A stretch of DNA of 64,000 nucleotides from Candidatus Nomurabacteria bacterium RIFCSPHIGHO2_12_FULL_42_19. GTDB lineage: Bacteria; Patescibacteriota; Minisyncoccia; Phycocordibacterales; UBA9973. Position 1 is the first letter of the stretch. Each line of letters starts with the position of its first letter. The position numbers and the translations under genes were made by a program. The stretch lies in assembly GCA_001786955.1 (NCBI GenBank), contig MFUM01000004.1:4457-68456 (forward strand). The letters run 5' to 3'. This document shows positions 44,367 to 44,536 of the stretch, piece after piece. The notes under the pieces are model-generated. The model did not search any database, was not told the origin of the DNA, and worked only from the letters and a program-made list of their open reading frames with translations.

Positions 44367-44392
44367 GGAGGATTCGCATAGCGGTCTAGTGC
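44367..44392 (+). pseudogene. Truncated duplicate of the 5' part (acceptor and D arm) of tRNA-Ser(GGA)
   Basis: ggaggattcgcatagcggtctagtgc matches the 5' 26 nt of the intact tRNA at 44452-44477 at 24 of 26 positions. There is no 3' half. Confidence 0.5.
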
Positions 44393-44451
44393 CGAAGGAA
44401 ATATAGACTTGGAAAGCGCTTTTTTGTTTGTTAGTATTTGAATTGAAAAAT

Positions 44452-44536
44452 GGAGGGTTCGCATAGCGGTCTAGTGCGCACGCTTGGAAAGCGTGTGTGG
44501 AGCAATCCACCAGGAGTTCGAATCTCCTACCCTCCG
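44452..44536 (+). tRNA. tRNA-Ser (anticodon GGA), type II with long variable arm
   Basis: Acceptor GGAGGGT/ACCCTCC, anticodon stem cacgc/gcgtg with loop ttGGAaa, variable arm gtgga-gcaa-tccac, T-arm aggag-ttcgaat-ctcct, G73. Confidence 0.8.

Follow-up and report, generated by a model that had tools for sequence, protein, structure and literature searches.

The 64,000-nucleotide (nt) stretch of Candidatus Nomurabacteria bacterium RIFCSPHIGHO2_12_FULL_42_19 analysed here (contig MFUM01000004.1, positions 4,457 to 68,456 of the forward strand; hereafter the window) carries four transfer RNA (tRNA) genes detected by ARAGORN, one of which, tRNA-Ser(GGA), is preceded by a partial copy of its own 5' part. 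The intact gene lies at 44452-44538 on the plus strand (ARAGORN; Rfam tRNA, 53.5 bits), and its sequence is identical in many relatives. The partial copy starts with a fragment of tRNA positions 1-26 (44367-44392, plus strand), comprising the 5' strand of the acceptor stem and the D arm. Repeat matching of this fragment with 44452-44477 showed 25 of 26 positions to be identical, one more than the 24 counted in the initial annotation, and 100 shuffles of the window produced no such match. The duplication is therefore real, and it stretches to 33 nt when seven leader bases, four of them matching, are counted. The two copies are 85 nt apart, leaving 59 nt between the end of the fragment at 44392 and the intact tRNA.

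A second tRNA-derived block, overlooked in the initial annotation, lies at 44408-44418 on the plus strand. Its 11 nt, CTTGGAAAGCG, are identical at all positions to 44483-44493 and represent the anticodon loop and the start of the 3' strand of its stem (tRNA positions 32-42). Since the second block is offset by 75 nt from its counterpart and the first by 85 nt, the 15 nt of CGAAGGAAATATAGA (44393-44407, plus strand) replace 5 nt and occupy the place of the 5' strand of the anticodon stem. After positions 32-42 the copy ends and a T-rich spacer leads to the intact gene (44419-44451, plus strand), at the place that holds an open reading frame (ORF) in the related cassettes described below. The variable arm, the T arm and the 3' acceptor strand are all missing, in agreement with the earlier description of a copy without a 3' half. 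ARAGORN recovered only the intact gene, and Rfam returned nothing for 44367-44430 even at E<=10. A complete cloverleaf is absent and a second or misfolded tRNA is thus ruled out, whereas the similarity itself persisted on alignment. Five independent assemblies of the species agree throughout 44257-44561, except for a single-nucleotide polymorphism in the intact tRNA of one strain; the copy is therefore not an assembly artefact but a real feature fixed in the species. No ORF exists between 44393 and 44451. Searches of the window and its relatives for a source of the 15-nt insert or the spacer gave chance-level matches only.

A promoter-like motif, GCTTTCTTTTT-N-AAATAATGTAAATT, identified by its conservation in relatives, is located at 44329-44358 on the plus strand, with its end 8 nt upstream of the copy. 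A strongly conserved counterpart, CTTTCTTTTT-N5-AAAATAATGTAAATT, precedes the intact tRNA-Ser(GGA) of 18 relatives, ending 8-10 nt before base 1. Upstream regions scored against those relatives gave values of 20-46 for the sequence before the copy and of only 9-19, the null level, for the sequence before the intact tRNA. The latter sequence shows no resemblance to the motif or to the region upstream of the copy. Thus, the conserved motif stands in front of the copy rather than the intact gene, and the copy marks the original start of the gene; judged from these comparisons, the intact gene lies behind newer sequence.

A metagenome scan with the anticodon and variable-arm sequence of the tRNA yielded 49 loci (relatives' loci are given as L numbers). 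The same ORF-less module, in which the 26-nt fragment is followed by an insert that is invariably 15 nt long, by CTTGGAAAGCG and by a T-rich tract, is present at L108, L109, L113, L118, L128 and L129, and in truncated form at L093. When a sequence model was made from the seven full instances (the window and these six), their modules scored 77-85 bits and intact tRNAs no more than 35 bits. Across the seven species-level instances, 10 of the 15 insert positions and the entire CTTGGAAAGCG block are invariant, the first ~17 nt of the spacer are partly conserved and its distal part is barely alignable. The genomes bearing the module are distant from that of the window (LigA 64% identical, helicase 50-70%) and the neighbouring genes differ. 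As the junction is common to six or seven other species, it is not a one-off scar in this genome.

Weaker matches of the same model led to L125, where a promoter-like T-rich region is followed by GGAGGGTTCGCATA, a 35-nt GC-rich palindromic insert, GCGGTCTAGTGC, an ORF of 87 amino acids (aa) and the intact tRNA-Ser(GGA). In L095 and L107, a canonical promoter precedes a fragment broken by two GC hairpins, and the ORF runs into the intact tRNA, stopping at a TAG in its D loop. The ORFs of these cassettes are GIY-YIG nucleases (Pfam PF01541, E values from 1e-12 to 1e-15), and a profile search matched more than 4,400 small GIY-YIG proteins. Seven further ORF clusters were looked up, and six showed the order of fragment, ORF and intact tRNA: L139, directly after ligA, L158 and L165, the last with hairpins of the GCC-GAA-GGC type, at tRNA-Ser(GGA), and L143, L150 and L163 at tRNA-Tyr(GTA). 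The fragment in L143 covers positions 1-34, followed by hairpins and then positions 35-48; that in L150 covers positions 1-25 and is followed by CCCCGCCGTAGGCGGGG. The seventh cluster, L160, is a mirror form in which an intact tRNA-Gly is followed by the ORF and a 3' pseudo-part with the same kind of hairpin. Overall, the ORF abuts a tRNA gene in 12 of 12 sampled lineages. It lies between a 5' fragment starting at base 1 and an intact tRNA of the same identity in nine of them, namely L125/L134, L095, L107, L139, L158 and L165 for Ser-GGA and L143, L150 and L163 for Tyr-GTA. Rfam searches of the cassettes found neither a group I intron nor any other family, and an integrase was not seen either.

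The occupancy of these sites varies. Plain, ORF-bearing and relic states all occur at the ligA-adjacent tRNA-Ser locus, and only the C-terminal half of the GIY-YIG ORF is left in L090/L127. The presence/absence polymorphism at tRNA-Ser(GGA), which includes such truncated-ORF copies, is that expected of a homing element. The fragments of L095 and L133 derive from a tRNA-Ser allele other than that of the intact gene next to them, and mosaic tRNA alleles were also seen. Such a mismatch between fragment and intact gene would be expected of a cassette that brings its own tRNA, although, like the mosaic alleles, it is only suggestive of site-specific cleavage and gene conversion.

Two further features were noted among these loci. 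In L094, a 3' fragment of tRNA-Ser(GGA), from the T loop to the 3' end, lies ~190 nt downstream with GC-rich sequence between, a mirror-image duplication, and the sequence downstream in L105 is the same over the part read. In the Buchananbacteria tRNA-Tyr cassette (L143-L149), a gene of the 23S_rRNA_IVP family directly follows the intact tRNA, with short repeats of the TTAAC type around it.

Taken together, these observations suggest that the copy in the window probably represents the beginning (positions 1-42, with internal damage) of a tRNA-Ser(GGA) gene once interrupted by a homing-endonuclease-like cassette, and that it is now an ORF-less relic. The most economical reading of its sequence is the cassette architecture minus the ORF: the ancestral promoter, a fragment that begins with base 1 and is broken near positions 26-43, a short GC-containing insert and an intact tRNA. 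In relatives, the intact cassette consists of the host tRNA promoter, a tRNA 5' fragment broken by GC-rich hairpins, a single-domain GIY-YIG ORF of ~80-95 aa and a complete tRNA, through which function is restored. If it behaved like T4 SegB and other free-standing GIY-YIG endonucleases, the nuclease would break a cassette-free tRNA gene and repair would copy the cassette from the donor, with the 5' fragment and the tRNA body serving as homology arms. The captured tRNA promoter would express the ORF, and the duplicated 5' part would let the element sit in a tRNA gene without an intron. Such a relic would be in line with the cycle of gain, decay and loss through which homing endonuclease genes pass. 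The ORF would have been lost in the species of the window and in at least six others, leaving the fragment, the 15-nt insert, the anticodon-loop block and the T-rich spacer. Transcripts from the ancestral promoter would then probably read through the leader into the tRNA, with the leader subsequently trimmed. The window locus, which lacks the GIY-YIG ORF, is at most a degenerate derivative of a free-standing GIY-YIG homing endonuclease element.

A broader proposal is held more tentatively, at slightly less than even confidence: that the cassettes represent an undescribed mobile element of Patescibacteria, in which a single-domain GIY-YIG gene homes intron-free into tRNA genes (Ser, Tyr and perhaps Gly), accompanied by a GC hairpin and a second copy of the 5' part of the tRNA, using the tRNA as homology arms and a hijacked tRNA promoter. 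The window copy would be a fossil of this element, maybe retained or mobilised in trans; either retention or trans-mobilisation would explain the conservation of the relic across species.

Several observations weigh against the origin from a nuclease cassette. No ORF-bearing allele was found with the same 15-nt insert and 32-42 block, and comparison of the spacers with GIY-YIG ORF DNA by nhmmer gave nothing significant; the loss of the ORF is therefore inferred from the shared architecture only. The copy is present in none of the 33 GTDB relatives selected by helicase similarity. The ORFs of 77-95 aa consist almost wholly of PF01541; in contrast to the GIY-YIG homing endonucleases that have been characterised, no DNA-binding domain is recognisable in them. 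Finally, the inserts of the window and L118 are identical at 15 of 15 positions despite a LigA identity of 64%, which exceeds what neutral decay would leave. Horizontal spread in recent times or trans-mobilisation may account for the conservation of the relic. Gene conversion from the tRNA might account for it in the tRNA-like blocks but not elsewhere, and the module may also have been exapted as a leader or a small RNA.

Exaptation in this sense, in which selection keeps the module either as a leader that gives the tRNA tandem promoters or as a short RNA resembling a tRNA half, with a decoy or regulatory role, is considered unlikely as the primary account, but it draws on the same conservation. 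The module is far better conserved than the adjacent spacer in species with a LigA or helicase identity of only 50-70%, and the insert, which holds the 10 invariant positions, has a constant length of 15 nt. The module also persists although recombination between the 26-nt repeats should easily remove it, and it stands directly behind a strong conserved promoter. However, no signal of RNA structure accompanies this conservation. RNAalifold found no compensatory pairs, a comparison of low power with seven sequences, and fold z-scores ranged from -0.8 to +1.9 (-1.5 with the leader included), a stability equal to that of shuffled sequences. L109 and L128 carry D-stem changes without compensating partners, and 2 nt are deleted in L118. 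Neither covariation nor unusual stability was thus found that would indicate a structured cis-regulatory or small RNA. A scan of 44400-44430 detected no intrinsic terminator; no stable hairpin precedes the T tract, and a terminator or attenuator after the copy was rejected. In addition, the module is absent from most relatives.

A plain local duplication of the promoter and the 5' part of the tRNA, produced by slippage or illegitimate recombination without any nuclease and decaying neutrally, is judged still less likely. It would account for direct copies lying only 85 nt apart and for the four of seven matching leader bases, and partial 5' copies with no ORF in view do occur at a tRNA-Gln (L082) and a tRNA-Met (L025). 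However, a simple tandem duplication would make the spacer a diverged promoter copy, which was supported neither by the scoring (p=0.47) nor by a separate comparison, and the unit has diverged very unevenly along its length. In many relatives, fragments arranged in this way hold GIY-YIG ORFs. Upstream 5' copies were found at four tRNAs and at none of the other-strand and downstream controls, which also speaks against this reading.

Partial tRNA copies beside intact genes are a classic sign of integrative elements, and the initial annotation had proposed a scar of site-specific integration or excision. The general idea of a mobile-element scar at a tRNA gene fits the present results, and comparison with relatives revealed an insertion at the same place, a small GIY-YIG nuclease ORF rather than an integrase element. 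A scar of the attL/attR type, left by a tyrosine- or serine-integrase element that integrated and then left the tRNA gene, is largely refuted and very improbable: although the tRNA of L118 is followed by small helix-turn-helix and HNH genes, the duplicated part is 5' (positions 1-26 and 32-42) and not 3', no element lies between the copies, no integrase was found among the neighbours or in ten further ORFs scanned (all housekeeping), a viral scan with the fragment matched only a complete tRNA in a phage tRNA array and no attP, and the identical junction in seven instances with different neighbours speaks against independent integrations.

In favour of the cassette reading, the window contains two further tRNA-Ser loci that support the same theme. 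On the minus strand, a tRNA-Ser(ACT) with an unusual anticodon (62475-62563; Rfam, 56 bits) is followed in the same-strand order by CCTTCGG repeats, the GC hairpin GCGAAGGCGACCTTCGC (62407-62423) and a GIY-YIG nuclease ORF of 80 aa (62149-62391; Pfam PF01541, E=4e-12) that aligns with the tRNA-nested ORFs of relatives. The tRNA-Ser(ACT) may be a displaced or altered allele. The recurrence of ccgaagg near this gene, pointed out in the initial annotation, is true for 62449 and 62470, but CCGAAGG occurs nine times in the window against 8.6 expected; it is therefore not enriched and the count proves nothing. A link may still be real, given the GCC-GAA-GGC hairpins in related nuclease cassettes such as L165.

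The other locus, on the plus strand, is a second ORF-less case (62662-62796; identified by repeat match and fold) ahead of tRNA-Ser(GCT) at 62801-62890. Here, 62662-62677 is an exact 16-nt copy of the leader and the first 12 nt of this tRNA, located 135 nt upstream. The 119-nt leader before the tRNA holds a perfect 12-base-pair AT hairpin and several GC-rich hairpins, and no ORF; a 151-nt fold at this leader has a z-score of -4.66, and no Rfam family was detected in it. One of the hairpins, GCGCC-AAA-GGCGC, resembles GCGCC-GAA-GGCGC of cassette L165.

The tRNA-Ser(GGA) of the window is surrounded by genes for a helicase, orf73, LigA and pilins. The gene order conserved in relatives is pilin, ligA, tRNA-Ser(GGA), variable genes, helicase and pheS, with the orientation of the tRNA varying by lineage. 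As the genes between the tRNA and the helicase vary, the tRNA is a rearrangement hotspot. In lineages across L003-L085, the tRNA lies a few bases from the ligA stop codon in either orientation. The window has instead a 73-aa orphan ORF (44562-44783, minus strand) between ligA and the tRNA, whereas in relatives the tRNA directly abuts ligA. Its only homologue among 5.8 billion proteins belongs to the species itself, which this match identified as RIFCSPLOWO2_12_FULL_41_10, and Pfam gave no match; the flanking proteins place the window in Candidatus Nomurabacteria (Patescibacteria/CPR). No closer relatives for dating the events were found, since the helicase homologues below 100% identity start at 76%, and orf73 is an orphan.

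Repeats of other kinds were also noted. Within ligA, a 64-nt direct repeat (91% identical; 45578-45641 and 46226-46289) encodes SSRLTLP.V.GGTYATQK, and the genes for RNase R and pheS share a perfect 32-nt repeat (25798-25829 and 40782-40813). These repeats are GC-rich and apparently in frame, reminiscent of palindromic elements that insert into genes. Elsewhere, the tRNA-Gln(CTG) of L082 has an identical 32-nt copy 177 nt upstream (~740-920), followed by a hairpin and a T run and by a promoter-like site, TGTTATAAT; the tRNA-Met of L025 (~1460-1560) has a diverged copy 98 nt upstream and an inverted copy of the anticodon arm.

If the cassette reading is true, partial tRNA copies in these genomes would be footprints of nuclease cassettes and not integrase scars, and the cassettes would represent a new solution for living in an essential RNA gene, by duplicating part of it without splicing. 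This would explain the rearrangements and allele replacements at tRNA-Ser and tRNA-Tyr loci in a phylum of small genomes, give annotators a warning about tRNA fragments and odd tRNAs there, and provide a testable target for the very large family of small, uncharacterised GIY-YIG proteins, which could also offer compact nucleases specific for tRNA genes. The window copy itself would be non-coding debris or a leader rather than a gene, a fossil of less interest than the family to which it points.

Within the literature searched, no description of a GIY-YIG ORF nested in a duplicated tRNA gene was retrieved, so that the arrangement, common in related ultra-small bacteria, is apparently undescribed. 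Among known systems, T4 SegB recognises a conserved tRNA-gene motif and drives the inheritance of its own gene together with flanking tRNA genes (PMC2330249). As with SegB and the other members of SegA-G, the GIY-YIG gene lies among or beside tRNA genes and outside introns, and its presence varies among close relatives. SegB, however, has 221 aa and lies between complete tRNA genes, whereas the ORFs described here have 77-95 aa, consist of the catalytic domain only, with putative activity, and are situated on bacterial chromosomes inside a duplicated tRNA gene, flanked by the 5' fragment and the intact copy and accompanied by a GC hairpin.

In the mitochondrial atp6 gene of Allomyces, studied by Paquin, Laforest and Lang in 1994, a mobile GIY-YIG ORF reportedly brought a replacement gene end, and the resident end was left as a fragment. 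There too, the ORF travels with a part of the host gene, the hybrid gene is functional, the displaced fragment adjoins it and GC-rich double-hairpin elements occur nearby. That case differs in concerning a protein gene with a duplicated 3' end in an organelle, whereas here the 5' part of a tRNA gene is duplicated in bacteria. Integrase-encoding islands and prophages likewise carry a tRNA part that regenerates the gene, with a partial copy marking the other junction, but they duplicate the 3' part, encode an integrase and have their copies kilobases apart, none of which applies here.

In Patescibacteria themselves, group I introns with homing endonucleases occur in tRNA and rRNA genes (bioRxiv 10.1101/2025.07.03.662931; PMC11270868), and GIY-YIG ORFs have been found in non-intron rRNA insertions of the Candidate Phyla Radiation (PMC11270868). 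The introns share with the present cassettes the phylum, the kind of target gene and the tolerance of homing-type elements in essential RNA genes. The cassettes, however, contain no intron, and the function of the tRNA would be kept by duplicating a part of the gene rather than by splicing.
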